DNA of 63,533 nucleotides, counting the filler, from Folioceros fuciformis (lineage: Eukaryota), in NCBI GenBank assembly GCA_049999805.1. It is 11 parts of 11 records of this genome, joined end to end, with 100 filler letters (N's around TTAATTAATTAA, not from the genome) between each part and the next. Parts side by side here need not be neighbours in the genome. Positions count along the whole stretch, not along the records: positions 55,067 to 60,066 come from JBNGIO010005129.1; 10 more parts are not named here. One strand, written 5' to 3'. Shown here piece by piece: positions 3,353 to 62,243 of the stretch. A program made the position numbers and the translations under genes. Positions within the stretch are counted from its first letter, which is position 1, and every line of letters begins with the position of its first letter. Below the pieces are notes generated by a model. That model searched no databases. It was given only the letters and a program-made list of their open reading frames with translations, and was not told the origin of the DNA.

Positions 3353-5296
3353 CCAGCCCGTCCAGCCCCTTAAGCACCTTGGCCTCGGCCTCCTCCCAAA
3401 CAGCCATGAGGGCATCCTCCACGTGCATGGCCGTTGCAGCCCCTTGAGGTGCTGCTTGCAGCACCCCTGTCACCGCTGGCTGAGCAATCCTCACGCTCTT
3501 CCTAGGGTACTGACAAAACACGCTGCCCGCCACGTGCCCCTACTGTTTGCAGTCTTGGCACAACCTATCGTAGTCTCCATTGGCCTGCCTAGTTGCTGAT
3601 GGACAGCTGTTGGCATAGTGTCCAAATCCTTGACAATTATAGCATTGGACAACCCCCGCTGCTTGACGAGCAACTCTCCCCACCTGGTTGCTACGACCTC
3701 CCGTGCCCATAGGATTTCAAAGAATGGAAGGATGGGCTGTCTTGGAATATTGCTGCCCTTGGGAAAACTCCTGAATTTGGTAGGAGTCCTCCACCGACCA
3801 CTCCTCTTCTTCCCCTTCACAAGCCAGCAAATGCACCTTGGCCCCTTGACAATGGGTCTTGGTGTGGCCTTGCTCACCACAAATGGAGCAAAACAAGTTA
3901 GCCCTGCCACTAGTTGCAGCCCTCCTTCTCTCATGTTCCTTGACAGCATGGAGGTGAAACTTCTCAAACTTGCTCATCATCTCCTCCATCTTGGACTCCT
4001 GCTGCTCCACTTTCTTGGCTGCAGCCTCAACCTCTTTCTTGACCTGCTCCACCTCCCTCTTGGCACTAGCCACCTCTTGCTTGGCCTTGGCTAGATCCTT
4101 TGCCTTCCTTGCTTCCTTCTTCCTCCTAGCCACCTCTTGCTCCTTCTTCTTCAGTCTTTTCTTGACAGCCTCGTCCTCCGAGGACTCCTCCTCTAGGCTG
4201 TCCCCTGCTGAAGATGAAGAGGTCTCTGCTGCTGATTCTTCTGAAGAATTGCTCTCCTCGGAGGAATCTTCATCCGAGGAAGATGACTCCCTCTTCTTCT
4301 TCCCCTTCCTAGGCCTGTTCTTCTTCTTGTCCTTTTCCCTCACTCTCTCCTTCTCCTTCTTGGATCTCCCTTTGCCCCACGGATGAGACTCCTCATAATT
4401 GAGGGCTGCCCTTATAGCCCTGTCCACATCTTTTTCTGCGAACAATTTCACATGGCCCCCCATCCTTGATCCTAAGCCTCCAGCGAACCACCTAATGGCT
4501 TGTAAGTCTGAATGAGGTCCACAGCGATCCCGCAGGCTGTGGAACCTCTCCACATAGGCCTGCAAGGTCTCCTTCCTCCTCCTCCTCAAGGCCTCTAGCT
4601 TGGACAGCACATAGCCCTCTACGTCTATCCCCCTGAACCACTCACAAAAGGCCCTCTTCAACACATCAAAAGTTGCTGGAAATGTACCAACCTTGAGGTA
4701 CTCTCTCCTGTACCACTTGGCAGGCCCTCCACGCAGTACACCATAGAACAATTGGATGCGCTGTGCATCCGTTGATTCTTGGTTAGCAAGGGTCAGCTGC
4801 TCAAACCTCTCCACAAATTCATCCGGGTCCTCATACCCCTTCTTCTCCCCATACAAGGGGTACAACTGCTTGGTGGACATTGCAACAGCTGGGGTCGCCA
4901 TGGTGCCTGCACTCACCACTGCAGTTGCGGATCAGCAGCTCCAACAACTGGAGTTGGGCTGATGTTGCTGAATTCTTCAGCCCCTGCACTCCTAATCACC
5001 TGCACCAGTCTAGGTTGAAGACCAAGGAGCAGACTTGGATTAGGTTGCCCTGGATTAGGCCTTCCCCCAATAGCTGAAAGTTGAGGGTCTTGTTCCAACG
5101 TGATTGATTCCCCCAAGATCTGCTGATTGCTTGCCCCTCTCCTCCTCCTCTCTAGTGTATGCCCTGGCTGTGCCCTCCTTAGCTCCCTCTCCACTGCTCT
5201 TTGCTCACGCTCCAATACTTGTTGCTGCCTCCTTACTTGACCTTGAGCTTCCCCTTCAAAGCTAGAGTTGAAATCTTCAGCTCCTATGCGGGGCAT
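3353..5296 (-). pseudogene. gag: Ty3/gypsy gag, frameshifted; main ORF 3717-4919
   Basis: Retrotransposon capsid-like core (DPDEFVERFE..LRGGPAKWY..LKRAFCEWF..ETLQAYVERF..WFAGGL), Ser/Glu/Lys coiled coil, zinc knuckle CSICGEQGHTKTHC, and a second decayed knuckle CQDCKQ*GH...C near 3520-3560. It lies downstream of a PBS and 5' LTR. Confidence 0.85.
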
Positions 5297-9049: not shown

Positions 9050-10671
9050 TCAAGAAGAAACACTTGATAAGTCCACAAGGCCTAAAGCAAAAGAGAAATG
9101 CTCATACTTGGCCTTCGATAAACTTTTTGTAAATATATCTACGAGATTATCCTCCGTTGGGACATACTCAATAGTCACAAGATGCTCCGCAACTAATTGT
9201 CTTATAAAATGATGATGAACACCAATATGCTTAATTCGAGCATGGTACTTAGCATTCTTAGTTAATGCTATTGCCGACATATTATCGCAATACAATAAAG
9301 CAGGTGACTCTTGAACTTGATCCATCTCCACTAACAGAGATCTTCGAGCTACAGCCTCCTTACCAGCAAGTGTCAAGGAAGCATACTCACTCTCAGTTGA
9401 GCTAAGAGACACACTTTGTTGCTTCTTACATGTCCATGAAACTGCAGCACTACACAAGGTGAAACAATAACTAGATATGCTTTTCCGAGTAATAGGATCA
9501 GCTGCCCAGTTAGCATCAGACCAACCCTCAAGTAGTAGTCTTCCGTTCTTGTTTTCTTGTACTGAAGTCCTAGAGGCATAGTCCCGGACAAATAACAGTA
9601 AATGCATTTTACCGCAACCCAATGAGCAAGTCCAGGATTAGAGAGGAATTGCGAAACAATGGAAACAACATGAGTGATATCTGGACGAGTCCAGCCACTA
9701 AGGAAAAGTAAACATCCTATTGCCTCCCTATAAGGGGTGTGTAGCATCCTCTCCTGTTCCTCAACAATAATAGGGCTATCCTGAGAAGATAGGGTCTGTC
9801 CAGCTACAAGTGGAGTGGCTGCAGGTCGAGTTGCCTCAAGCTTAAAACGATGAAGAAGCTCTTTAACATACTTAGTTTGATACATGCTAAGAGTACCTTC
9901 ATCTCTATTCCTAGCAATTTGAACTCCAATACAATAAGTAAGAGTGCCAATATCCTTCATCTTATACTTTGAAGAAAGAGCAGCCTTTACTTCTGATAAA
10001 AGATCCGAGCTGTTTGTAGCGATAATAATATCATCCACATACAAAGCAATAATAACCAGCTTCCCGTCTTTACATAAGAAATATACATTCTCATCAAAAT
10101 CACAACAAACAAAACCCATCTCCATAAGAGTCCCATCTATATCGTCATACCACTTCAAAGGGAATTGCTTACGTCCATAAATGCATTTCAAAAGTAAACA
10201 AACTAAATCCTTAGTTTTAGGATCTATAAACCCCTCTGGTTGTTCCATATAAATAAGCTCCTCTAATTTTCCATATAGGAAAGCCGTAGTAACATCCATT
10301 TGATGTAAATCTAAATCTAACTCTACTGCTAATGCTAGCAAGTATCTGATAGTCTGCAACTTAACTACTAGTGAAAAAGTCTCGTGATAATCGACTCCAA
10401 GAACTTGGCTATAGCCCTTAGCACACAAACGGGCCTTGTAGCGTTCTACACTACCATCAGCTTTCAACTTAATACAAAATACCCATTTACACTTAATTGG
10501 TTGCCTAGCACTAGGAAGTTTAACTAGTTTCCAAGTTTTATTTTCTATCAAACTATTATATTCTAATAATATAGGTGCCTCCCACTTCTCCTTATCAAGT
10601 CCAGACAATGTTTCTTCACGTGTAGCAGGTTGAATAAGGTCAGTAGTTGCTATATAAGCTTGGACTAGTGA
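9050..10671 (-). pseudogene. pol: Ty1/copia reverse transcriptase and RNase H, one frameshift near 9540
   Basis: KARLCAKGYSQ, HQMDVTTAFLYG, LYVDDIII, WTRPDI, SDANWAAD..TRKS, SSTESEY, LYCDNMSAI, KHIGVHHHFIR. Confidence 0.95.
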
Positions 10672-10771
10672 NNNNNNNNNNNNNNNNNNNNNNNNNNNNN
10701 NNNNNNNNNNNNNNNTTAATTAATTAANNNNNNNNNNNNNNNNNNNNNNNNNNNNNNNNNNNNNNNNNNNN
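10672..10771. other. Artificial contig spacer
   Basis: N44-TTAATTAATTAA-N44. Confidence 0.99.
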
Positions 10772-17759: not shown

Positions 17760-17859
17760 NNNNNNNNNNNNNNNNNNNNNNNNNNNNNNNNNNNNNNNNN
17801 NNNTTAATTAATTAANNNNNNNNNNNNNNNNNNNNNNNNNNNNNNNNNNNNNNNNNNNN
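17760..17859. other. Artificial contig spacer
   Basis: N44-TTAATTAATTAA-N44. Confidence 0.99.
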
Positions 17860-22397: not shown

Positions 22398-25325
22398 ATG
22401 GGAAACACATATTCAGGAGAGTTTAAGGAAAAGGACTGGTTTGATAGTAAACCTTTTCGATTTGAGAGCTGGAGAGCTTGTATGAGCAATGGCAGGTCAG
22501 GCCATCGTCAGCGAGGTGACAAAGTCATCTCTGCCAAAGCTAAAGGTCCTTGGAACGGGAAAGATAGAGGAGCAAAGAAGCAGCAGTCTAACGACTCAAG
22601 CTCGACTCCAACTTCCTCTACTAAACGAAAAGGTACCTGTCACTAGGGCCAGATTCCAGGGCACTGGGAACGAGACTGCCACAAGAAGAAGGCTGGTGAG
22701 CCTAAGAAGGAGGCCAAGCAGGAGGTTCACGCTATCTCAAAGGAGAAGAAGACCTCAGCTGGCTCCAATAGTACCTCACAACAGCGTAGCGGTAGTGGTA
22801 CGGCTTTGACAGTTTGCCTCACACTATCCAAAGGCAGTTCTTCATAGTGGTTTGTGGACTCGGGAGCCACGTCGCACATCTGCAATAATCGTGGCCTCTT
22901 CCTGAAATTCCACAAACAAACGTCACCACAATTAGTGTTTGTAGGTGATTCTAGAGGAGTGAAGGTCAGAGGTTCTGGTACAGTAGAATTGCTTTTATTA
23001 GATGGGTCTTGTCTACTGTTAGAGGATGTCATGTTTATCCCCGACATGAGTAAAAACCTGTTGTTAATTCGAGCTATCTCTCAAAGTCAGAAATATGGTT
23101 TTAGGTTTGAGAATAATACCTGCTTAGTTTACCCTCTTTCTGACCTTGATAGTCATGTTGCTAAGGCAATGTTAGCTGAGGAACTCCACCAGCTTGTTCC
23201 AACACACAAGTCTAAGGCTAGAGTTTTACTTACTGCTTCTAGTGAACAGGCTAGTATTTGGCATGCTAAATTAGGTCACGTCAATCGTGCTAAGTTGGAC
23301 CTTATGGCTAATTCTTCATGTTATCGAGAACGCTTACCTTCTTGCTTCAAACATCTTGCATCCTGCAGCTCTTGTATCTTGTCAAAACAGAAAGAGTTGC
23401 CCTTTAAAAACAGAAGTGCCAATCGTGCTAAGCAAGTGCTAGAGGTAATTCATGCAGATACAGCGGGAAAGCTACCTGTCAAATCTGTAGGTGGAGCAGA
23501 GTACTACCTGTCCCTTACAGATGACTACTCCAGGTATACATGGACTTTTCCAATCAGGCAGAAGAGCGTTGTGTTTGACACCATCTCGGATCACCATGGT
23601 TCAACGACAGACTAGTCAACTAGTTAAATGCTTTCGAACCAACAATGGTGGTGAATTTACTATCTAGCAGTTTGATGTCCTGTTTGATTCACTTGGCATA
23701 GTGAGACAGCTTTCTGTTCCCTACACACAGCAGCAAAATGGTGTGGCAGAGCGTAAGAATCAAACTTTGATGGAAATGGTTAAGAGTATGTTGTCGTGGG
23801 TAGCTCTCTCTAAGAAGTTATGGGCAGAAGCCATAGTGTGTGCCACTTATATATTAAATCGAGTTGTTACGTCTGCTCTCCCCGGCAAGACACCCTATGA
23901 AGCATTATGGGGTCGTAAGCCTAGTCTTCTTCATTTGAAGGTGTTTGGGTCTCCTGCTTTTGCCTTTATTCCTGAACCTAAAAGAAAGAAGTTAGATGCC
24001 ATATCTAAGCCTTTCATCTTTTTAGGCTATTCTTAGGAGTCAAAAGCATATAAGCTCTATGTTCCTATCACGTCTTGAATTACTCTGTCTTGGAGTGCCA
24101 CTTTTCTAGAGCTTACCTCTCCTCAATCTGATTTGTATGTAGGCCAGTTGTATGCTACAGATCCCATGTTTTCAAATGATCCTTCTCCTGGTTTGGACTT
24201 AGATGACTTTGAGCAAGCTGTCACACATCCCGTTTTCGATGGTGAGATTACTGCTCTGACTGCTCAGCTAGATGCTGATCCTCTTCTACAAGAACCCTTA
24301 CACAATCCAGTACCACTAGCAGCTGGTCCAGATGATGATATACAGTCCCAACATTCTTCGGATTCGAGTTTTGCTCCTCCTTCTCACCATGCTGAGGTTG
24401 ATGGTTTCGAGGATGATGTTGCTGCAGAGGGAGCAAAGGGGAATGACCTCAAAGCTGCTCCCCCTCCACCAGATCTTCCTCATTATTCCTTCAGAGACAG
24501 GCGGTCAAGAGACAACTGGATTGAGCCTCCTTACCAATCTATGGATTTTCGAAGACATGCAGCAAATGTAACTGACCTTCATGTTCCTAATGTAAGGCCA
24601 GATCCTCACACTTACACATAAGCCATTAGTGGCCTTGATGATAAGCACTGGCGGATCTCTATTGATGAAGAGTACAAATCTCTTATCAAGAATCATACTT
24701 GGGAGCTGGCTGACCTGCCTCTTGGAAGAAAGCCCATAACGTGTAAGTGGGTGTTCAAGACAAAATTGAAGGCAGATGGCACAATTGCGAGGTATAAGTC
24801 ACGCTTGGTTGCAAGAGGTTTTTCTCAGATACTTGGCATTCACTATGGGGACACGTTTTCCCCGGTAGTTAAGCCTCCCTCTGTGCGTATCTTGCTTGCC
24901 ATGGCTGCTGAATTCGACCTTGAGCTTCATCAAATGGATGTGTGTACAGCCTTCTTACACGGTGAGCTTGAAGAGGTCCTTTACATGCAGCAGCTTGAAG
25001 GGTTTGTAGACAAACGTTGGCCGCAGAAGGTGTGCAAGCTGTTGAAGACACTCTATGGCTTGAAGCAGGGTCCTCGTGCCTAGTACAAACGCATTATAAA
25101 GTTCTTAAGGAAAAATGGTTTTGTTCAATCACCTACAGACAACAATGTTTTTTACCTTGCTTCTGAGAGTTTGTTTGTGATCTTGGCGCTGTATGTGGAT
25201 GATGCCATCCTACTCAGTAATAGCCCTTCTAAGCTCGATGAAGTAAAAGCCCTTCTTTGTTCATAATTTGAGATGACTGATCAGGGCTCTTTGTAGTACT
25301 CCTTGAATATCTAAATTTTGCGCGA
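22398..25325 (+). pseudogene. pol: Element Y gag (internally deleted), protease, integrase and 5' RT
   Basis: FKEKDWF..FESWRA; protease [75 protein letters not shown]; multiple stop codons. Confidence 0.93.
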
Positions 25326-35672: not shown

Positions 35673-35772
35673 NNNNNNNNNNNNNNNNNNNNNNNNNNNN
35701 NNNNNNNNNNNNNNNNTTAATTAATTAANNNNNNNNNNNNNNNNNNNNNNNNNNNNNNNNNNNNNNNNNNNN
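35673..35772. other. Artificial contig spacer
   Basis: N44-TTAATTAATTAA-N44. Confidence 0.99.
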
Positions 35773-36952: not shown

Positions 36953-38493
36953 ATGTCTAGTGGAAGATGTGATCGCAGAACTGGTAGAGGGAGAGCAGTT
37001 GTAACCCCTTCACCAAGGGATCTGCATGCAACAAGGAGGAATTTGCTGAGAGGAGAGAGTAGCTTGACCCCTAAGGCTAGCACCCTTGTGCAGGAGGAGC
37101 TGCCTTGGTCAAGTGGAGAGCACAAATCTGAAGGGTTGATTGCCGGAGAGCGTGACATCCAGGAGGTTGGTATTACATCTGGTTGCAGGAAGGAGTCTTA
37201 CAGCCAACAAGTGGGTCGTGTTGAGAGGGAGTCCGCGTTACAGTCAAGTGTTGTGCAGTCAACTCTAGGTGATACTTCAGTCGTGGTATCATTGCTGGAT
37301 AGCTTGCAGTCACTTGTTGGTGGTCAGTCAGTTCCCTTGCCGGCCATTGTTCCATTGTCAGCCCCCGTAGTGGTTTCAGTAGGGGCTGTACTTCCTACGT
37401 CAAGTATCAGCCAAGTGGGTGGAGGAGTTGCTGCAAGGATGGCTGCTCCTATTCACAGTCGTCAGCAATACGTGAAGTTTGGAGACAAGAGAAGAGGGGA
37501 GGATGCTGAATCCTTCCTAAGGACGTTCGAGCATGTGTCTCGTGCCAACATGGAGGACACTACAGCTGATCGTTTGAGGATCTTTCCAGGTTTGCTAAGA
37601 GGACAAGCTCAGCAGTGGTACAGCCGGACGTATGGAGTGACACCACCAGTGGATTGGGACATCCTGAAAGACGATTTCTTGACCAGGTTCCGAGGTCTCA
37701 GCCATGGCCATCACACCTACGCGAGGTTGAGGACTTTGAAGCGAGGAAGGAAGGAGGATCTCTATGACTACATTGAGAGGTTCTACAGCTATGTGGACTG
37801 GATCCCAAGTGGCAGGCCAGTTGTTCCAGGAGGTCCGAGTACTCCAGGGTACACGGATGCTCAAGCTTTGGATTGGTTTGCTGGAGGACTACCCGATAGG
37901 ATGGCAACCTACTGCACAAGAGGTGTGACCACTTTGCAGGAGGCTTTGAAGGCTGCTGAAGATTTTGAGCTGTCGGAGTTGAGCAGAGAGAAGAGGAAGC
38001 AGAACCGGAAGTATGGGCATCATAGGAGGTCGAGGCATCACAGCCCATCTTCCTCTTCAAGGTCAAGGTCACCGTCTCACTCTGATCCGGATTATGACAG
38101 CCTTGTGTCTGATCCTTACACCGATGAGGAGTCCGATAAGGCTTATGAGAAGAGGATGAGGAAGGACCTGGAGAAAGCACGCAAGAGGCACGAGGAGGAT
38201 GAGGATCGTCGAGCTGAGAAGGACAAGAGAGGCAAAGGATCCTATAGGATGGAGAGAGGCGAACCGTCCTCAAGTGGTGGAGGACTGACCAGTTAGGTTG
38301 AGGCATTGACGAGGAGGCTGGCCGAGTTGGAGGTGAAGGCTGTACGCAACCAAGCACCAAGGAGGTCACCTTCACCAGGTCGGCAGCTGGTGTACTGTCC
38401 TATCTGTCACCAATCAGGACACACCCACCAAGAGTGCACTAGGGCTCCCCGCCACGCCGTCAACCAAGTGGACACCTACCTACCAGGAGACTA
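36953..38493 (+). CDS. gag: Ty3/gypsy gag; one in-frame TAG at 38294-38296; truncated by contig end
   Basis: EDAESFLRTFE..IFPGLLRGQAQQWY..DWDILKDDFLTRF..EDLYDYIERF..WFAGGLP, with knuckle CPICHQSGHTHQEC after the stop. Homologous to the gag at 3717-4919. Confidence 0.88.
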
Positions 38494-38593
38494 NNNNNNN
38501 NNNNNNNNNNNNNNNNNNNNNNNNNNNNNNNNNNNNNTTAATTAATTAANNNNNNNNNNNNNNNNNNNNNNNNNNNNNNNNNNNNNNNNNNNN
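38494..38593. other. Artificial contig spacer
   Basis: N44-TTAATTAATTAA-N44. Confidence 0.99.
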
Positions 38594-41679: not shown

Positions 41680-41779
41680 NNNNNNNNNNNNNNNNNNNNN
41701 NNNNNNNNNNNNNNNNNNNNNNNTTAATTAATTAANNNNNNNNNNNNNNNNNNNNNNNNNNNNNNNNNNNNNNNNNNNN
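41680..41779. other. Artificial contig spacer
   Basis: N44-TTAATTAATTAA-N44. Confidence 0.99.
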
Positions 41780-44066: not shown

Positions 44067-44585
44067 AAAATTTGGAGCCGGATCTGAACAGGTGCGCTGT
44101 GGGGAGTATCTTTCCAGGCAATTTCACTGTGAGGATCTCAAGCGCTGGGCATGTCAGACCTGCCTCCTTGCTACATCACCATCTCAGCACACCTGCTTCA
44201 GAAACCCATCGGTTCAGTGTTAGTTGCACCTTTTAAGGTCAGCTGAAGCTCAACCGTCATTTTTTTTTAGCGTTTCATTTAAGGCCCTTTTTTTTGTTTG
44301 GTTACTAACCTGTTGGGTGGCAGATGTTCCTCTCGTTAGAGTATGTCTGCAGAATAGGTTAGTGACTTCGAGTCATCCTCCCATGATAGTGAGGATTCTC
44401 CACTTCCAAATTCCCCTGCACGTTCAGCGAATAGTCTTTTGTTTGTTAGTAGCTTTGAACCTGTATAGGAAGAAGGCATAGCAGACTATATTAGGGACTA
44501 TTTAAATAGCCTAATCTCACGGCCTTTTGGCTATAATCCTAATCGTCAAGACCAGCAACTTAATCAGCAGATACCCATTATCAAT

Positions 44586-47500
44586 ATGACTTCCTCTACT
44601 GCACAAGTGTCAACCTCTGTTGGAATTACGTATTCTAGTGACTTCAAGGAGAAGGACCGGTTTGGTGGTCAAGCTAGCAGATTCGAGAGCTGGCGGGCCC
44701 GGATGAAAGCTTTTCTTGACGCCAAAGACCTATGGGAATATGTGGATGGTACCCTCACAACACCTGATATCACTCAAGCAGGTATCACTCAAACAGATGT
44801 AGATAAGTGGGTGAAAGGCAACAAGGTGGCTTTTGCGATCCTTCTTTCTGGACTAGACGAAACAACGGTAACAGAGGTGGAGTCCTTACCAACTGCTGCT
44901 GACGTCTGGACCCAACTGAAGGACACCTACCAAGTACAGAATATTCTCACACTTGTGGCTGCTCGCAACGAGTTCTTTGGCCTGAAACTTTGTGATGGAG
45001 ATGATGTCGGACCTCATGTGGTCAAGTTCAGAGACTTGAGGTCACAGCTGACTGCTCTGGGGAGCACTATGTCGGAGGTGGATGCTGTTGCTCAACTTCT
45101 ATCCAGCCTACCTGCAAGCTTCCAGAATTTCATCTCTAGTCAGAATGCGGCCTTACAGGCTTCGTACGTTGCTATTGCTGCAAAGAAACCACCTACTGTT
45201 ACCTTCAACAGCGTGGTTGGTGCTCTCCTACAAGAGGAGCAGAGCCGACAGAAACCAAGGACTTCCTCTCGCGTCCGTGGGGAGAAAGTGCTCTTTGCTG
45301 CAAAAGGCAAAAACACCGGACAGGGTAAGCAGAAAGGCAGGAAGAGTTCTAACTCATCTCCTTCCCACACCTCGCCCAGCACCAAGCGGCAGGGGAACTG
45401 CAATTGGTGTCAAATACAAGGTCACTGGGAATGTGACTGTCGGAAGAAGAAAGCAGGGGAACCCAAGAAGGATCCGAGATCTGAGGCCCATGTGACTTCC
45501 AAAGACAGCAAAAGTTCTGGACCACCTAAGAGTAGCAGCACAGTTCTTATTGTGTGCCTCTCCTCCTCCAAAGAGCCTTCTTCAACCTGGTTTGTTGATT
45601 CTGGTGCGACTGCTCACGTGTGCAACAACAAGGAGCTTTTCTCCACCTTCCACAAGATGAGGGGGAAAACACCAGAGTTAGTGTATGTAGGAGATTCTCG
45701 TGGAGTGGAGGTAAAGGGCAGTGGGATAGTTAAGATACCTTTGGCAGCCGGCAAGTCTTTGCATCTGCATGATGTTTTGTATGTTCCCACGATGTCTAAG
45801 AACTTGCTGTCGGTTAGAGTTGTAGCTCATAATCAGCATTTAGCTTTTCGCTTTGAGGATAGAAAGTGCTATCTGTATCACCCTTTTGATCCTGACACAT
45901 ATGTGGCGAAAGCAGTCCTTGTTACCGACTTGTACCAGTTAGTCACAACAGCAAAAGTTCATGCTAGGGCACTTACGTCTACGCACCATGCTCAGGCTAA
46001 CCTTTGGCATGCTAGACTGGGACACGTCAACAAGGCAAAGCTGGATTTCATGTCTACCTCCGATTGCTATAGAGAAAGGCTCCCGTCTTGTTTTAAACAT
46101 CTTGCTCCCTGCAGTTCTTGCATTCTGTCAAAACAGAAGGAGCTTTCGTTTAAGAACAAGAATCCAACACGTGCTAGAGCAGTACTGGAGCTAATCCATG
46201 CAGATATTGTTGGCAAATTACCTGAGAAGTCACTTGGCGGTGCTGAGTATTATCTTACCCTCACCGATGACTACTCGAGGTATACGTGGACGTTCCCTCT
46301 GAAATTGAAGAGTGAAGTCTTCGACACAATTGCTGCCTGGATCCCTATGGTGCAACGTCAAATAGGCTGCCTAGTCAAGTGTTTCAGAACTGACAATGGA
46401 GGGGATTTCACAGGCCACAAGTATGATGATCTGTTTGAATAGTTTGGTATTGTAAGACAACTCTCTATTCCCTATACTCAACAGTAGAATGGTGTGGCTG
46501 AGAGGAAAAACCAGACACTTATGGGCATGACAAGGAGCATGTTGTCGTGGGCTGGTATATCAAAATAGTTCTGGGTAGAGGCAATAGTGACTGCTACCTA
46601 CATTCTCAACAGAGTGGTTACCTCTGCTTTGCCTGGACGGACTCCCTATGAGGCCTTTTGGGGCAGAAAACCCTGTCTGTTACACTTGCGAGTCTTTGGA
46701 TCACCTGCTTTTGCGTATGTTCCAGAAGCAAAACGCAACAAGTTAGATAGCAGGTCTGTCCCTCTTATTTTCCTAGGCTACTCTGAGGAATCAAAGGCCT
46801 TTAAACTTTATGATAAAGTCACTTCAAAGATTGTTCTTGCTAGGAGTGTGATTGTTAGTGAACTTACCCAATCTCCAGCACTCCCTGAGCATGACCTTCT
46901 AGATGGGCAGATCTTAGATCCCACTTCAACTACTCCTTCTCAAGCTGAAAGGTCAGGAACCCCAATTTTTGAAATTGCACCTCATCAATATCCTCAGTCA
47001 AATGGGGAAGGACCTACTGCAGAAGATATGGGTGCAGCTGACGAGCAGCATCTAAATGGAGTTGGCCAGCAACCTGAGGACGATCCTCCACCAGCAGCTG
47101 ATGATGAGATACCTCCTGCACATGCTGTGGGGGAATTTGCAGAGGATCAGGCTTCCTTACATGAATTCGAAGATGTGATCTCTTTGTCTAGTGTTGAAGA
47201 TGATGCACAATCTGCTCTTTCTGAGGAGCCTGAGCCTGGACCACAACCAGCACCACCTGTGGATCAACAACCTCGTTATAATTTCAAGGAACGGAGATCT
47301 CGAGATCAGTGGTTTGAACCCCCTTACCAATCTTTGGATTTTCATAGGCCCTCTGTTCAGGTTTCTGATCTTCATGTACCCGATGTCAGACTTGACCCAC
47401 AGTCATATGATGAGGCTGTTAACGGACCTGATGGTGACAAATGGAGAATCTCCATCGAGGATGAGTATCAATCTCTTATCGGAAACGGCACATGGGAGCT

Positions 47501-48969
47501 AGTTGATCTTCCACCTGGCAGAAAACCAATCAGTTGTAAATGGGTTTTTAAAACAAAACTTAAGGCTGATGGTACAGTAGCCAGGTATAAGTCCAAACTA
47601 GTTGCTCGAGGCTTCAGTCAGATTCCAGGCATAGACTACGGGGACACCTTCTCACCTGTTGTCAAACCACCCTCTGTTCGCATTCTCCTTGCTTTGGCAG
47701 CCGAGTTTGACTTGGAAGTCCAGCAAATGGATGTTTGTACTACATTTCTCCATGGTGAGCTTGAAGAGACGCTGTACATGGAACAACCTGAGGGGTATAT
47801 CGATAAAAAAATGGGTTAAAAAGGTCTGCAAGTTACTTAAGACTATGTATGGCCTCAAACAGTCCCCTAGAGCCTGGTACAAGAGAATAATGAAGTACCT
47901 TAAGAAGCTAGGGTTTCTTCAGTCTCCTGCTGACGGCAATATCTTTCTTCTCATTGTTGGAGCACTCTTTGTTATCTTGGCACTCTATGTGGATGACTAT
48001 GTCCTGCTTAGCAATAGCACAGAACTGTTAGCCAAGGTTAAAGACATGCTTCGACAAGAATTTGAAATGACTGATCAAGGGGATTTGCAGTTTTGCTTGG
48101 GTATACAAATCCTTCGCAATAGGTCAACTGGCACTATTACCTTACATCAGACGAAATACCTTAACGAGATTTTGAAGCGATTTAATCTTCAGGATGCTCG
48201 CCATATAGCCACTCCCTTGGCAGTGGGGGAAAAGCTGATCTGTGCATAGTCTCCACAAACACAGCGTGAGATTGAAGACATGAGCAATGTACCTTATGCC
48301 AAGGCAGTGGGTTGTCTGATCTTCCTTGCAAACTGGACTTGCCCCGATATTAGTTATTCAGTGAGCATGGCGTCCCAGTTTCTCCGACAACCTGGCAGGG
48401 CACACTAGGCTGCCGTTAAAAGGATTTATCGGTACCTCAAAGGCACCATCAACTATGGGCTGCAATATTCAGCCAGTGGGAATAGCTGTATGGTACTTAC
48501 CTCCTTCGCAGACGCCGATTGGGCTTCTGATGCCGACACCAGAAAGAGTCTCTCGGCTTACTGTTTTCTGCTATCTTCTAGAGCTGTGAGTTGGGGCTGC
48601 AAGAAGCAGTCTTCTCTAGCTCTTTCTTCCTCAGACGCTGAATACAAGGCCTTGATTGATGCTTGTAAGGAGGCGGAATGGCAGAGGCAGTTCCTGGAGT
48701 CTGTACAGCAGCCATAGAAGGAGCCCACTATGTTATACTGCGATAATATGAGCGCAATAGCTCTTGTGGCAAACCCTAGGTTTCACGCCCGAACTAACTA
48801 TATTGAGCTATATCACCACTACATAAGGGATGTGGCTGAGCGAGGGGTCGTGAAGGTAGAGTATGTTAGCACACATGATAACACTGCAGATATCTTTACC
48901 AAGGGTCTGTCCAAAGTCAAGCATTTCCAGCATCTCGCAGCCCTAGGTCTACGTGAGTTTGTGCTTTAA
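44586..48969 (+). pseudogene. pol: Element Z gag-protease-integrase-RT-RNase H polyprotein, with about 6 TAG stops and one frameshift near 47810
   Basis: Knuckle CNWCQIQGHWECDC, WFVDSGATAH, LWHARLGH..CSSC, IHADIVG, RTDNGGDF, QMDVCTTFLHG, LYVDD, ADADWASD, RFHARTNYIE. Confidence 0.96.
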
Positions 48970-51388: not shown

Positions 51389-51488
51389 NNNNNNNNNNNN
51401 NNNNNNNNNNNNNNNNNNNNNNNNNNNNNNNNTTAATTAATTAANNNNNNNNNNNNNNNNNNNNNNNNNNNNNNNNNNNNNNNNNNNN
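51389..51488. other. Artificial contig spacer
   Basis: N44-TTAATTAATTAA-N44. Confidence 0.99.
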
Positions 51489-54966: not shown

Positions 54967-55066
54967 NNNNNNNNNNNNNNNNNNNNNNNNNNNNNNNNNN
55001 NNNNNNNNNNTTAATTAATTAANNNNNNNNNNNNNNNNNNNNNNNNNNNNNNNNNNNNNNNNNNNN
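54967..55066. other. Artificial contig spacer
   Basis: N44-TTAATTAATTAA-N44. Confidence 0.99.
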
Positions 55067-55067
55067 A

Positions 55068-57020
55068 CGTCCAGCTGTTAGGGCCCTGTATGAAGAGATT
55101 CGGGCGTGGTTCGGCAATGAGCTGATCATGGACGCGGTGCAGTGTGGCTCATATGCACACAGGCTTCGCAGTTACTGGACAAATGTGGCTGGACTGGAGG
55201 TGCTCAGACAGCACAGGAATTTGACAACTCCGAAGCGGAAGGTTGTGGATGATATCCTAGAGTTGGGAAGGTGCTCACAACAAGTGAAGAGGATGGACAA
55301 GTTGCCATTTTACCCTGTGAATCGAGTAGGGGAATCCAGAAGGGCATGGCCAACTCTGGTGAGCACACCGCAATCTTATGCCTTCAGACCAGGAGGAGAT
55401 GGTGTGATTCTGGATTTGAAAGGGAATGAGCTTGGAGAGCTCAATGTTGAGGAACGCGAGCAAGCGATGGGCTTTGCCAAGAAGGACACTCAGACCATGG
55501 GCATCACAGAATCTGCAAGGTGCAGGATGCTCGGACAGGCATTTGACTTGTACAGTCTAAGGTGGCTGGTAAGCACAGGCTTGGCGTTCCAACTTGCAGA
55601 AGCCGAAGGGAAGCGAAGGCCTTTCCTCCAACTACTGCAGGATAAAGAGGTTCCTAAGGCAGAGGAAGACGAGCTGCTACTGTTAGAAGGAGAACTCGTG
55701 AGGAAAGTACCAAGTCATGAGGAAAGAGTGGGCATAGTGACCAAGGTGCACGAAACCCTTGGCCACTTTGGTGTGAAGAGGACACACCACATGCTGAAAA
55801 GCACGTATTTCTGGTCAGGGATGTATGCAGATGTCGAGAAGGTGGTTGCTAAGTGTGCTGCATGTGATGCAGTCAAAGCCCGATTTAACACCCAGGATGT
55901 GGTGTTGCACTCCCTACCAATCAGGGGGCTATTCTTTAGATGGTCGGTTGACCTTATGCCAGAGCTTCCCCTCACAAAGCAAGGTAACCGACATTGCATG
56001 GTCATGATTGAGCATTTCTCTAAGTGGGTTGAAGTAGCGTTCTTGCCACAGAGAACTTCACACTACACTAGCAGAGCGTTTCTGCAGTGTGTGCTCAGCC
56101 GATTTGGGAGCTGCGCGGAAGTGCTCACAGACCAGGGTAACGAGTTTCGAGGTGAATTCCAGACCTTGCTCGACAGGAGTCTCATTGATCACAGGAGGAC
56201 ATCGAGGGATCATCCACAGGCCGATGGCCTGGCAGAAAGGCTAGTGCAGACCTTCAAGGATGCACTAAGGAAATACTGCATTACTGTGGAGCCCAAGTGT
56301 TGGGATGAATTGCTCCCTTACATCGTGTTGGGGTACAGGGTCAGTGTGCAGGCAACTCTTGGAAGTTTCAGTCCATACTTTTTGTTATTCGGACGCAACG
56401 CAGTGTTGCCGAATGTGGTGAAGGACACCTACTCCATCCCTGTTGACTGGAGCAAAGATGCAAATGTGTGCTTGGCACAGGTTCAAGCCAGAGCAGAAGT
56501 ATTTCAAAGAATTCTTCCCATGGCTATGGATAATTTGGCTGTGGCCCAGCATCGGGACCAGCTGAGGTATGCTTATACGCGGGGGGGCTCGTGGAAGCCC
56601 AAAGGCCGCAAGTTTGCATCTGGAGATTACGTGTACTTGCAGCGCAGGCCTGCAAGCACGTTAGCTGTCAGCACAGGAAGGCTTATCCTGCGAGTTGTCC
56701 AGGTTGGTGAGCAAGGTGTGGTTGAACTTGAAGGAAGAGATGGCAGAAGGTGCAAGGAACACATGAAGCACTTGGCTCCATGCCATTTGCCTGATCTGGA
56801 TACACGAACTGTGCCTCAGACCTGGACGCCACCAGCAGATTTGCCCTGTGAGGAGTGTGGACACACAACTGACGACGAATTCATGTTGCTATGTGACAGG
56901 TGTAACCGTGGTTACCATCTGTTTTGCCTCAAACCGGCACTGGACAGTGTTCCAGAAGAAGAATGGCTATGTGAGCACTGTAATGTGCTAAAGTGTGAAC
57001 GTGGCTCTTACAGAAGGTGA
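55068..57020 (+). CDS. Ty3/gypsy pol C-terminus: DNMT3-like C5 DNA methyltransferase (motifs VII-X), integrase and PHD finger; 5'-truncated by contig edge
   Basis: The frame is open from 55068. DNMT part (~55068-55570): MDAVQCGSYAHRLRSYWTN and EEREQAMGF..DT..ESARCRMLGQAF. Integrase: HHCC (VHETLGHFG..CAAC) and DDE (WSVDL, LTDQGNEF, GLAERL). PHD C4-H-C3 at 56847-56981. Confidence 0.9.
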   Translation, partial: RPAVRALYEEIRAWFGNELIMDAVQCGSYAHRLRSYWTNVAGLEVLRQHRNLTTPKRKVVDDILELGRCSQQVKRMDKLPFYPVNRVGESRRAWPTLVSTPQSYAFRPGGDGVILDLKGNELGELNVEEREQAMGFAKKDTQTMGITESARCRMLGQAFDLYSLRWLVSTGLAFQLAEAEGKRRPFLQLLQDKEVPKAEEDELLLLEGELVRKVPSHEERVGIVTKVHETLGHFGVKRTHHMLKSTYFWSGMYADVEKVVAKCAACDAVKARFNTQDVVLHSLPIRGLFFRWSVDLMPELPLTKQGNRHCMVMIEHFSKWVEVAFLPQRTSHYTSRAFLQCVLSRFGSCAEVLTDQGNEFRGEFQTLLDRSLIDHRRTSRDHPQADGLAERLVQTFKDALRKYCITVEPKCWDELLPYIVLGYRVSVQATLGSFSPYFLLFGRNAVLPNVVKDTYSIPVDWSKDANVCLAQVQARAEVFQRILPMAMDNLAVAQHRDQLRYAYTRGGSWKPKGRKFASGDYVYLQRRPASTLAVSTGRLILRVVQVGEQGVVELEGRDGRRCKEHMKHLAPCHLPDLDTRTVPQTWTPPADLPCEECGHTTDDEFMLLCDRCNRGYHLFCLKPALDSVPEEEWLCEHCNVLKCERGSYRR

Positions 57021-57323
57021 TACTGAGGTTGTCTTAAATTCACACACGTTGGAAGCTGAAACAGCAGTTGACAGTCTCTCTGGATTCAAGCTGCCCAGTG
57101 AGATTACGATTACACAGGAGGCACACGAAGACCCATCAGATGATGAGGATCTAGAAGATGACGCCATTCCTCCTCCTCGGTCAGAACCACCGTCAGTGTT
57201 GAACAAGCTACGTTCTCGCTGGTGGGGACGTTGGTAAGTAGTTGTTTGTTTTCCTAGGCCAAGTTGGTCTAAACAATTTTGTGGGAAACCAGGTGGCTAG
57301 GCCTCCAAGTTTCCCAGGGGGGC

Positions 57324-58370
57324 TGTTGACGGGTCCCGGGTCTGCCTCTCTTAGGCAAACCTAGTCTCTTTTTGTAGCCTTGCTCTTGGCCATAGGCCAA
57401 GGACAAATTAAGGCTAGGATTGTTGCTCCTGGGCCGAAGGCCAAGGAGATCGCAGGCAGGCGGAAGCTTAGTGACCTAGCTTGGTAGACAGGCTAGGTAG
57501 GCATGCAGCTATGCGGCTGCTGCGCGACAGCTGTCATGCTGTTGCTGTATGGGAAACAGAGCACCCAAGACTCTATGACTGGATACTGACTAGAGCATCC
57601 TGGGCATAAGCCCTGAATGCTGAAATGACTAGATACTGACTGGAGCATCTCGGGCATAAGCCCTGATGCTGAAGTGCTTGATGATGTCATGTACATGGCC
57701 CATGGATGGCCTGCACATGACATGTATGCCATATATGCATGTGTGCCATGTATGCATGCATATGGAGATGAAGGATGACATGTGATGTATGTGGACATGT
57801 GGCAGGTGATGTGTCATGGCGCATGCAACCTATATGCATGGTTGTGCATGAAAGGCGCGGTGCTATGCCGCATATATAGATAGCAGATTTATATTAGAAG
57901 ATATTAGAAAATACATAAAAATCATAAATCAAGGAAAGTAGGATTATAAAGTGCCCACCATCGATACGGGTGGACACTTCATCGAGAACTCCTGGGGGTT
58001 TTTGCCTATATATGTAGGCACCCAGCCATGGATTCTCGGATTGTTGATGTTTGTCTTGTTCCAATAGACAGCCATACTTCGTCCCTGCTGTGTCTTTGTC
58101 TCCTAGAGGTTCTTGTGGTTCGTTGCATTGCCAGGTTGGGAGAATTTTCCAGCTTGATTTCACCTGTTGACGGGTCCCGGGTCTGCCTCTCTTAGGCAAA
58201 ACTAGTCTCTTTTTGTAGCCTTGCTCTTGGCCATAGGCCAAGGACAAATTAAGGCTAGGATTGTTGCTCCTGGGCCGAAGGCCAAGGAGATCGCAGGCAG
58301 GCGGAAGCTTAGTGACCTAGCTTGGTAGACAGGCTAGGTAGGCATGCAGCTATGCGGCTGCTGCGCGACA
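57324..58370 (+). mobile_element. Terminal repeat region of the DNMT-gypsy element: 206-bp unit A (57324-57529), 635-bp B, 206-bp unit A (58165-58370)
   Basis: PPT-like AGGGGGGC before the first TGTTGAC. Both A units run TG...CA and differ by one substitution by eye. B contains a TATA-like CCTATATATG. Confidence 0.8.
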
Positions 58371-59836
58371 TCTTATTCCAATTCACCTTGCAGCCCGAAA
58401 GTTCACCAAAGACCTTGACCTGTTCGAGAAGCGCTTTTAATGAGGCCTCCTCTGATGAGGAAAAGAGAAGAGTATCATCTGCAAATGCAGATACCCTTAG
58501 TTGTGTCCCATCTGGGTTCACAGCCGGGTCTTGCTTGACTGCTCTGAGAAAGAAGTCAATGACGATAATAAATAAGAACGGAGCAAGGGGGCAACCCTGA
58601 CGTATCGACCGGGAGATTTCGAAACGCTCCGTTAAAGAACCATTGATAGCCACCTTGGCACTTGCGTCTTCACACAAAATGGCTACCCATCTGCAAAAGT
58701 TATTCCCGAAGCCGAAACTATGTAGGCATCGCCACAAGAAGTGCCACTCAACTGAGTCATAGGCCTTGTAGAAGTCAAGGGAAATGAAAACAGTGGCTTT
58801 CTTCTGTACTTGTGCATTGTACTTAGCCTCCCTCAGAAGAAGTAGGTTGTCTAGGATGCACCTATTTTGAATAAACCCTCTGTTCTTTCTCAATCCAATC
58901 ATCAAGAAATAGAGTAATTCAGTTAGCCAGTACCTTAGCAATCACCTTGTACGTGGTAGTGAGCAAGGTAATCGGGCGCCAATTGGAGATTGATAAACTG
59001 GCATCTTGCTTAGGCAGCAGGGAGATAACCCCCATATTGAACCAACTCCCCATGCTACCCTCCTCCCAGAACATATTAACCGCCTCCATGAATAGCGGTA
59101 GCATAAATTCCCACCCCCAGAGCAGAAATTCGGGGGAATACCATCGTGCCCTGGGGATTTATCCCTCGGCATTCCCTTCAGGGCCCAGAACACCTCATCG
59201 GCAGTTATCGGTTGATTCAGAGTCCTGCGTTGGTCTTCGGACACTTTGGCCGAAAACGCACCATATGTCGAAGACCAAAGCCGTTCCCACCCTGCCATCT
59301 TCCCAACACTAGAGAAAATGCCAACAAAGAAGAGGGTAATAAGGGCTTTAAAACCTTCAAGTGACTCTTGCACCACGCCATGCGCGTCTGGGAGGGCCGG
59401 GATTCACATCCTATGCCGGTTAGCGGCCACCTTGTCGAAGAAGAATTTACAGGGGCCATCCCCTCCCTTACCTACTTAACCTTGGCCCGCTTAAACCATC
59501 CTCTTGCCCTATCTTCTTCCAATTTAGCCAAGGCGCACTGCACCTCCGTTTTCCAGGCCTCTTCCGCACTTGTGAAGTCCCGGCCCTCGCAGCTCCTTTG
59601 TAACCAGCCTAGTTCTTCCCTCAAAAACCATTCTTACTGACGTTGTTCTCTTGCTCGTTGAACCCCCCTCCTCTACAGATACCTAGTCGCTTCATTGTTC
59701 GCACACATCAAGTTGATTGCCGTATTCTCTTCTTCCTGTGCAATTCCCTGCCAGATGTTTTTGATATCTTAAAAGACACCTCTCCTTCAGTAAGGAGGTG
59801 TTCATCCAAAAATGTTGCATGTGCCTCCTTGGGCGC
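58371..59836 (-). pseudogene. L1/Tx1-like non-LTR retrotransposon ORF2 fragment (RT), frameshifted and cut at both ends by LTRs
   Basis: KSPGHDGIP, NWRPITLLTTTYKVIAKVLAN, GFIQNRCILDN, LDFYKAYDSVEW, RQGCPLAPFLF, SAFADDT, SGCKVNWNK. Confidence 0.92.
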
Positions 59837-60066
59837 TGTGAACCTCCAAAGTTTGGGGTAGTCGTTTGTTTTGGTTGAAAAAGGGTTAATAGTGGTATGG
59901 TTTGGTTTTCTTTTTCAACTTATTTTCCCTAATTTTTCTTGATTTTCTGGTTATTTTTTCTATTTTTCTTTGTGTTAATTAGGTTAATTGACCAGGAAAT
60001 AGTTGGTTTGGTTATAAGAGTGGGTATAGGTTTGGTCCCAGACCTGGGAAGGTTTAGGTTCGGTAC
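59837..60066 (+). mobile_element. LTR family C terminus inserted in the LINE
   Basis: Starts TGTGAACCTCC; reverse complement of 35873-36102. Confidence 0.82.
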
Positions 60067-60166
60067 NNNNNNNNNNNNNNNNNNNNNNNNNNNNNNNNNN
60101 NNNNNNNNNNTTAATTAATTAANNNNNNNNNNNNNNNNNNNNNNNNNNNNNNNNNNNNNNNNNNNN
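60067..60166. other. Artificial contig spacer
   Basis: N44-TTAATTAATTAA-N44. Confidence 0.99.
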
Positions 60167-62143: not shown

Positions 62144-62243
62144 NNNNNNNNNNNNNNNNNNNNNNNNNNNNNNNNNNNNNNNNNNNNTTAATTAATTAAN
62201 NNNNNNNNNNNNNNNNNNNNNNNNNNNNNNNNNNNNNNNNNNN
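62144..62243. other. Artificial contig spacer
   Basis: N44-TTAATTAATTAA-N44. Confidence 0.99.

Follow-up and report, generated by a model that had tools for sequence, protein, structure and literature searches.

The window analysed here is a 63,533-nucleotide stretch of DNA from Folioceros fuciformis (GCA_049999805.1), in which 11 short contigs are joined end to end. On one of these, at positions 55067-60066, we found what is most probably the 3′ two-fifths of a Ty3/gypsy-type "Gypsy-Dnmt3" retrotransposon, in which the integrase is preceded by a DNMT3-like methyltransferase domain and carries a PHD finger at its C-terminus. We assign a probability of about 0.8 to this reading, including the mechanism that is proposed for it below. 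The domain make-up, its conservation in relatives, the terminal structure and the insertion into a long interspersed nuclear element (LINE) are demonstrated by the data that follow. Gypsy-Dnmt3 elements have been in print since 2018, and the copy in the window is a new, partial member.

The open frame and its domains

The contig opens at 55067, and a reading frame starts at its second base. From 55068 to 57017 of the plus strand this single frame runs through 650 codons without a stop and ends with the stop codon at 57018-57020. The chance of such a stop-free run is about 2e-15, given the local base composition. Since the start of the frame coincides with the start of the contig, its 5′ end was cut off by the assembly. 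This agrees with a preliminary description of the region, made from the sequence alone, which had reported a stop-free frame of about 650 codons truncated by the contig edge. Pfam recognized three domains in the 650-residue product, which are included in the following list of features (coordinates in the window, strand, description).

55068-55595, plus strand: predicted DNMT3-like C5 cytosine methyltransferase, C-terminal half with motifs VIII, IX and X and the target-recognition stretch (residues 1 to about 176; from relatives, profile and fold)
55596-55715, plus strand: linker between methyltransferase and integrase (about 28-40 residues versus about 100-150 in relatives)
55716-55880, plus strand: integrase zinc-binding H2C2 domain, Integrase_H2C2 (residues 217-271; H228, H233, C263, C266; PF17921, 3.2e-16)
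55938-56213, plus strand: integrase catalytic core, rve (residues 291-382; PF00665, 6.6e-11; DD35E residues D295, D355, E390)
56214-56846, plus strand: integrase C-terminal region (residues 383-593; relatives match at E values of 1e-18 to 1e-43)
56847-56981, plus strand: PHD finger, C4HC3 (residues 594-638; C594, C597, C609, C612, H617, C620, C635, C638; PF00628, 7.3e-11)
56982-57237, plus strand: end of the frame and acidic tail (stop at 57018-57020; other copies run on through 56992-57237, 81 residues)
57316-57322, plus strand: polypurine tract AGGGGGG, directly before repeat B1 (from the sequence)
57324-57529, plus strand: repeat B, first copy (B1), starting with TG and ending with CA
57530-58164, plus strand: repeat A, 3′ copy, 635 bases (two-base spacer GC, then TGTCATGC)
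58165-58370, plus strand: repeat B, second copy (B2), ending with CA; right end of the element
58371-59836, minus strand: fragment of a non-LTR (LINE-type) retrotransposon that hosts the element (RVT_1, 1.7e-31, on the open reading frame 58312-58941)

The methyltransferase half of the frame was traced through its relatives. A HMMER search with residues 1-191 against 1.84 billion representative proteins (clusters) retrieved 582 proteins at E ≤ 1e-3, 319 at E ≤ 1e-10 and 4 at E ≤ 1e-30, with identities of 32-47%. Word-based protein searches with residues 1-190 ("longer" and "near") gave no match; these are weak negatives, since HMMER found hundreds of relatives. When the same 191 residues were compared to the PDB by phmmer, all 27 weak matches (E values 0.095-1.4) were DNMT3A/B/C or plant DRM. 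PF00145 was found above the cut-off in 7 of 11 relatives scanned with Pfam. Except in P0026, it covers only the N-terminal part of the domain there, just upstream of the stretch that matches the window.

An alignment of 34 sequences revealed nine invariant residues (D22, A23, R32, R34, W37, N39, T96, R130 and E131), and every invariant residue of the visible half is present in the window. Motifs VIII, IX and X follow each other in the canonical order in the alignments and carry the conserved residues. The blocks that the preliminary description had quoted as DNMT3-family motifs are thus real, and they are conserved positions of a large family. For the catalytic motifs we aligned the 75 database matches that reach at least 230 residues upstream. 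The consensus reads ELFGG..GL for motif I, GW[PE]CQDLS for motif IV, LEN for motif VI, DA...GS.AHRLR.YWTN for motif VIII, ERE.A.G[YF] for motif IX and R....G...D for motif X. The cysteine of motif IV is kept in 72 of these relatives, the glutamate of motif VI in 74 and its asparagine in 71, while the three glycines of motif I are kept in 66, 74 and 65.

A profile built from the 34 sequences matched DNMT3A best in the PDB (2.1e-25), followed by DNMT3B/3C, DRM (4.1e-13), M.HhaI (3.6e-9) and DNMT2 (8.5e-5); DNMT3A aligns to it over two stretches, one from motif I to motif VIII and one spanning motifs IX-X. The window's own 191 residues were also modelled with AlphaFold2 from the family alignment; the model had a mean predicted local distance difference test score of 90.4 and a predicted template modelling (TM) score of 0.84. 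Foldseek placed DNMT3A/3B/3C at the top of the PDB matches to this model (E value 3.3e-6, TM score of about 0.6 on the query, about 162 columns, about 20% identity), with DRM next. At the level of sequence profile and predicted fold this supports the view that residues 1 to about 176 represent the C-terminal half of a DNMT3-like C5 methyltransferase. By profile E values and Foldseek ranking, the predicted enzyme is closer to DNMT3 than to other DNMT families.

The methyltransferase part is followed in the same frame by the H2C2 and DDE domains of the integrase and by the C4HC3 PHD finger, and the in-frame fusion that had been described is confirmed by the position of the Pfam domains. E390 of the catalytic core falls just past the rve match, near 56235. 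The residues H228, H233, C263, C266, D295, D355 and E390 are invariant across the integrase alignment of relatives. All eight zinc ligands of the PHD finger can be read in the window sequence. No chromo family was among the Pfam matches to the 650-residue frame at E ≤ 1. Protein Atlas returned only an integrase/PHD cluster, at 0.78, which is below the level that counts.

The closest structure to the PHD finger in the PDB is the PHD of ATXR5 (3.7e-16, PDB 5VAB, 50 residues aligned). The next matches are KMT2C/D, CHD4, WSTF, DPF2/3, BAZ2A, KDM5, UHRF1, PHF21A and AIRE. Most of these other nearest solved PHD fingers (BAZ2A, KDM5 PHD1, PHF21A, AIRE, CHD4, UHRF1) read the unmodified H3 tail. For the ATXR5 PHD, selective binding of unmethylated H3K4 is described in the part of the publication available to us (PMC5499861).

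Relatives of the element

Architectures were counted among 150 listed matches of the 582 database proteins; 39 of them have at least 650 residues after the methyltransferase. An integrase follows in all 39 and a PHD finger in 38. The exception is P0026, which has the order zinc knuckle-protease-DNMT-reverse transcriptase (RT)-RNase H-integrase. Six of the 11 Pfam-scanned relatives combine (RT-)RNase H, integrase and PHD in one polyprotein. Relatives carry RVT_1 and RT_RNaseH upstream. The preliminary description had proposed to look in full-length copies for RT-RNase H and for motifs I, IV and VI, and both are present upstream in the relatives. It had also named a missing C5 methyltransferase match, loss of the PC/ENV motifs and a fusion confined to one chimera as outcomes that would speak against it. 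None of these was observed, and the fusion, with its recurrence in 38 of 39 relatives with enough downstream sequence, is no one-off chimera. Additional modules occur in two relatives: P0010 has a Tudor domain (PTM_DIR17_Tudor) behind its PHD finger, and P0012 a G-patch behind its methyltransferase.

When metagenome contigs were scanned, 507 of 598 candidate stretches proved to be relatives; 80 loci (L001-L080) were retained. Two layouts are seen. The order of the window, RT/RNase H-DNMT-integrase, occurs in 17 of the 80 loci, while the methyltransferase precedes RT/RNase H and integrase in 30 (DNMT-first layout). Four loci (L046, L063, L074, L075) lack a DNMT, even though 2 kb or more upstream of the RT can be seen, and 29 loci are too short to assign a layout. 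A PHD finger was seen in 71 loci. By sequence identity the integrase of the window is nearer to integrases of the DNMT-first layout (median 54%) than to those of its own layout (46%).

Some relatives carry a species name. For the methyltransferase part these belong to Calypogeia fissa, Marchantia polymorpha and Scenedesmus sp. PABB004, where the protein is annotated as "pol". For the integrase-PHD part they belong to Calypogeia fissa (57%), Haematococcus lacustris, Closterium spp., Sphagnum magellanicum and Chromochloris, and the closest integrase-PHD relative that we found has at most 66% identity. An integrase tree was calculated for the window and 47 rows (21 loci with an integrase free of stops and frame changes, and 26 chosen proteins). 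This was a quick search with Shimodaira-Hasegawa-like approximate likelihood ratio test (SH-aLRT) support only, and the filter for stops and frame changes removed most DNMT-first loci. The window stands beside Calypogeia fissa and one metagenome locus with an SH-aLRT value of 91, which is not strong; among clades holding at most half of the rows, none with support of at least 95 contains the window.

Selection was estimated from the ratio of nonsynonymous to synonymous substitutions (dN/dS) in 11 pairs of relatives. Four DNMT-first pairs were dropped, as they carry 1-5 in-frame stops per region and gave values near 1. The pair L034/L037, the sole one with unsaturated dS, gave a dN/dS of 0.14 for the DNMT and of 0.11 for the integrase.

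Terminal structure, insertion site and state of the copy

Downstream of the frame, the contig carries a polypurine tract and the TG...CA repeat B, in the layout B-A-B and not as a single long terminal repeat (LTR). A repeat search found positions 57323-57532 and 58164-58373 to be 99% alike, and B1 and B2 differ by a single mismatch at 57360. The sequence past 58370 differs from that past B1. Right after 58370 a LINE reverse transcriptase is encoded on the opposite strand, and a second minus-strand open reading frame of the LINE region lies at 58942-59403. We therefore conclude that the element inserted in a LINE and that 58370 is its right end. Inside repeat A a 42-nt tandem pair (90% alike) is located at 57575-57666.

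The complete terminal pattern is visible in three relatives that lie within long metagenome contigs (L006, L022, L059). Here the order is A, about 9.4 kb of coding sequence, a run of G, and then B-A-B, with TG...CA ends, and the 5′ end of the element is the second copy of A. The G-run at the position of the polypurine tract is also present in L022 and L059. In all three, A starts with TGTCATG and B ends with CGACA, as in the window. The flanking 4-mers match in one case (CCAA/CCAA) and nearly match in the other two (GCAT/ACAT and ATTA/ACTA). At the internal B-A junction of the window (57528-57539; compare 58366-58374) two extra bases lie between CA and TG; with the shared terminal words, this junction therefore looks like joined element ends. 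The complete order A-coding-B-A-B was seen in three of six examined DNMT-first relatives and in none of six with the RT-DNMT-integrase layout, of which one shows a repeat at the contig end only. The metagenome contigs of the latter relatives probably break at the repeats.

The state of the copy was assessed by aligning contigs of public runs, coded X1, X3 and X5, to the contig of the window; the depths given are contig word depths, not copy numbers. Many short pieces of X1, a run that may be the source of the window, cover the contig at 90-100% identity, which fits a multi-copy family. Record 9 of X3 (1669 nt, from another study) aligns to 55067-55680 and to 55671-56207, with 263 extra letters between and an overlap of 10 bases. 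The linker of the X3 copy is therefore longer by 273 bases (91 codons, in frame). The same record runs 255 nt past the left edge of the contig. Contigs of X1 and X5 diverge from the window at 55671 and 55678. At the other end of the frame, one base at 56990 is absent in X1 (depth 355.6 of 359) and in X3 (11.2 of 11.2), and in these copies the frame continues to 57237. The tail at 56992-57237 had no relative among 271 fetched proteins.

The insertion is young, since B1 and B2 are almost identical, and the copy is itself altered: its linker is shortened, and its frame stops early behind the PHD finger. That the frame is intact, as had been stated in the preliminary description, holds for its 650 stop-free codons; it does not hold for the linker, which is 273 bases short at 55671-55680, or for the end, which has the extra base at 56990.

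Further variation was observed on the same contig. An X3 contig skips 182 bases at 57045-57228 (ends AC..GG, 7 shared bases), which is a length variant and not a canonical intron. In X1, depth peaks at 2777 at the tandem pair in repeat A. It reaches about 56,000-97,000 at 59837-60066, compared to hundreds elsewhere on the contig, and 22 contigs diverge at 59837. This terminal segment represents a repeat of very high copy number, at which the contig may be misjoined.

The remainder of the window offers no second copy. Its contigs are chained artificially by spacers of the form N44-TTAATTAATTAA-N44 (20 N-runs, 10 spacers, at 2567-2666, 10672-10771, 17760-17859, 35673-35772, 38494-38593, 41680-41779, 51389-51488, 54967-55066, 60067-60166 and 62144-62243), and sequences on the two sides of a spacer are therefore uninformative about each other. 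A tblastn search of the 650-residue protein against the whole window returned only the match to itself. The gag, protease, RT and N-terminal DNMT half of relatives had no match at E ≤ 1e-3 in the rest of the window, and Rfam gave 0 matches over its entire length. The window is rich in transposons: Ty1/copia parts (gag, a protease-like barrel, integrase, RVT_2) and gypsy-type gag fragments lie at 44469-47819, 9376-10671 (minus strand), 22848-23612, 3720-4931 (minus strand) and 36953-38293.

Proposed mechanism, alternative explanations and known systems

We propose that after reverse transcription the integrase would insert the new DNA by its TG...CA ends. Its similarity to known readers suggests that the PHD finger probably anchors the integrase to chromatin without H3K4 methylation, away from active promoters; this would be comparable to the chromodomains that steer chromoviruses to heterochromatin. 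The methyltransferase would travel with the polyprotein and probably methylate either the insertion site or the newly made cDNA; a new copy would then carry the 5-methylcytosine pattern of the host from the start. Such an arrangement of writer and reader parallels DNMT3 with its ADD domain.

Several observations weigh against this picture. The contig edge cuts off motifs I, IV and VI, as had been anticipated; the frame opens at the contig start, between motifs VI and VIII. Pfam PF00145, which the preliminary description had suggested as a check of the N-terminal segment, does not match residues 1-190 of the window even at E ≤ 1, and the methyltransferase assignment therefore rests on relatives, the family profile and the fold comparison. 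The proline of the catalytic PC motif is replaced by glutamate in 47 of the 75 aligned relatives and kept in 21. For the DNMT, dS was saturated or undefined in five of seven RT-DNMT-integrase pairs, which makes the dN/dS support thin. The 5′ end of the element, where a paired LTR, a primer-binding site and a target duplication would be expected, is outside the contig. The window copy lacks the 273 linker bases and stops early after the PHD finger, and it may be dead or in part a product of the assembly. The preliminary description had suggested that the PHD finger reads unmethylated H3K4. Similarity to solved fingers, above all to that of ATXR5, speaks for this and places the finger among the predicted readers of an H3 tail unmethylated at K4; the target itself is deduced from that similarity. 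Finally, the Gypsy-Dnmt3 domain of Klebsormidium nitens did not methylate DNA when expressed in yeast; human DNMT3B also failed, and the authors regard the experiment as inconclusive in the part of the article that we could consult (PMC5890265).

The yeast result and the loss of the PC proline in many relatives would also fit a methyltransferase-like fold that has been kept for a purpose other than methylating DNA, for instance as a DNA- or RNA-binding or scaffolding module, or for acting on RNA. RNA methylation was indeed raised by the authors of 2018 in the passages seen, but for the LINE-borne SymbioLINE-Dnmt and not for the Gypsy DNMT (PMC5890265). We consider this explanation unlikely: the catalytic cysteine and the glutamate of ENV are retained in nearly all relatives (72 and 74 of 75), the R-x-R of motif VIII and the residues of motifs IX/X are invariant and present in the window, and a yeast test that was negative for human DNMT3B too says little. 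Somewhat more weight, although we still doubt it, is given to the view that the PHD finger does not target integration and instead activates or positions the methyltransferase, or binds a non-histone partner. The ATXR5 PHD raises the catalytic efficiency of its enzyme up to 58-fold by modulating the SET domain, according to the text accessible to us (PMC5499861), and the PHD-integrase of the four loci without DNMT indicates that the PHD finger is older than, or independent of, the DNMT. Against this view, the PHD finger sits at the integrase C-terminus, the position of the chromodomain that targets chromoviruses, as far as the portion of the preprint at hand describes it (bioRxiv 10.64898/2026.05.21.726589), and the two layouts retain it alike, also where the DNMT does not adjoin the integrase.

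Two further explanations are highly improbable. The exact divergence of the X1 and X5 contigs at 55671 and 55678, a point that no listed X1 piece spans, could reflect an assembly chimera in which a methyltransferase fragment was joined to an unrelated integrase at 55671-55680. However, record 9 of X3 holds both sides on one contig, in frame and with 273 more bases than the window, and the order DNMT-then-integrase recurs in 17 of the 80 metagenome loci and in many database proteins. A domesticated host gene for a DNMT3-integrase-PHD fusion would account for the long open frame and for the retention of all conserved residues, yet it is just as hard to reconcile with the rest of the data: a polypurine tract and terminal repeats ending in CA follow the frame, the element interrupts a LINE reverse transcriptase, X1 contains many diverged copies, and the relatives are full retrotransposon polyproteins.

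Gypsy elements with Dnmt3 were described in Klebsormidium nitens as KnitGypsy-Dnmt3 by de Mendoza et al. 2018 (PMC5890265, consulted in part). A preprint of 2026 names "streptophytes (Gypsy-DNMT3)" in the portion seen (bioRxiv 10.64898/2026.05.21.726589), and Gypsy-Dnmt3 elements are cited again in passages of PMC12344493 that name Copia and DIRS. The terms "KnitGypsy-Dnmt3" and "Gypsy-DNMT3" were found in the literature only in PMC5890265 and the preprint. The comparison with KnitGypsy-Dnmt3 was made by its published description and not by sequence. Like the element in the window, it has an intron-less Dnmt3-related methyltransferase inside a Gypsy-type Pol open reading frame. Its repeats are DIRS-like, in the order A-coding-B-A-B, according to the legend of Figure 4c, one of the parts seen (PMC5890265); the window has the B-A-B end of this pattern and L006, L022 and L059 have the whole. 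The host differs, being Klebsormidium there, while the named relatives here are liverworts (Calypogeia fissa, Marchantia polymorpha) and chlorophytes (Scenedesmus sp.). "PHD" occurs 0 times in the main text of the 2018 paper (PMC5890265), although its Figure 4c and supplements might show it. Fusions of PHD fingers to retrotransposon domains are known more generally, from the parts of two sources that we saw (10.1101/2021.11.30.470311; PMC8557442). The PHD-bearing integrases of Selgy elements, to which the preliminary description had referred, could not be confirmed, as "PHD" occurs 0 times in the main text of PMC6317226. In published text we did not find the constant PHD partner, the two positions of the methyltransferase or the spread over liverworts and chlorophytes, some of which figures and supplements may show.

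The best profile and fold matches, DNMT3A/3B/3C and DRM2, share with the family motif VIII (AHR-x-R-x-x-W-x-N), motif IX (E-R-E...G-[FY]) and motif X (R...G...), and their motif order is likewise not rearranged in the window, at about 20% identity. Unlike these enzymes, the element has no PWWP or ADD domain, its PHD finger lies about 420 residues downstream, past the integrase, the stretch between motifs VIII and IX is longer, and PC reads EC in most relatives. SymbioDIRS-Dnmt3 of Symbiodinium resembles the window in having a Dnmt3-like domain in Pol and split direct repeats. However, SymbioDIRS-Dnmt3, DIRS, Ngaro and PAT use a tyrosine recombinase, whereas the window encodes a DDE integrase and has TG...CA ends, and its relatives have 4-base flanking repeats. 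Chromoviruses likewise carry a reader of histone marks at the integrase C-terminus, which presumably steers insertion; in the window the reader is a PHD finger, with unmethylated H3K4 as its likely target by similarity, and not a chromodomain directed to H3K9me. In ATXR5 the similar PHD finger belongs to a host H3K27 methyltransferase, in the window to a retrotransposon integrase.

The window copy adds little alone, because it is partial and altered. The family gives more material, as it is large, is present in liverworts, chlorophytes and environmental DNA, has kept the catalytic residues and nearly always couples the methyltransferase to a PHD finger of the class predicted to read unmethylated H3K4. 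For the possible purposes of such a methyltransferase, the authors of 2018 named camouflage as self-DNA, protection from editing, local setting of chromatin and self-restraint, and stated that the role "remains unclear" in the text that we could read (PMC5890265). Since cytosine methylation is the main weapon of the host against transposons, it is paradoxical that a transposon should supply a de novo methyltransferase of its own. The coupling of methyltransferase and PHD finger offers a concrete and testable model, in which chromatin-guided integration would be combined with self-methylation. Only tentatively we extend this to split-repeat Gypsy elements as a large clade that would span green algae and bryophytes. 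In it, a DNMT3-like writer would occupy one of two positions in Pol and always be paired with an ATXR5-type PHD finger. If this is true, the two domains would jointly re-create the logic of DNMT3 and its ADD domain within a transposon, first reading H3K4me0 and then methylating, and the element would in this way choose promoter-free chromatin and methylate its own new copy.

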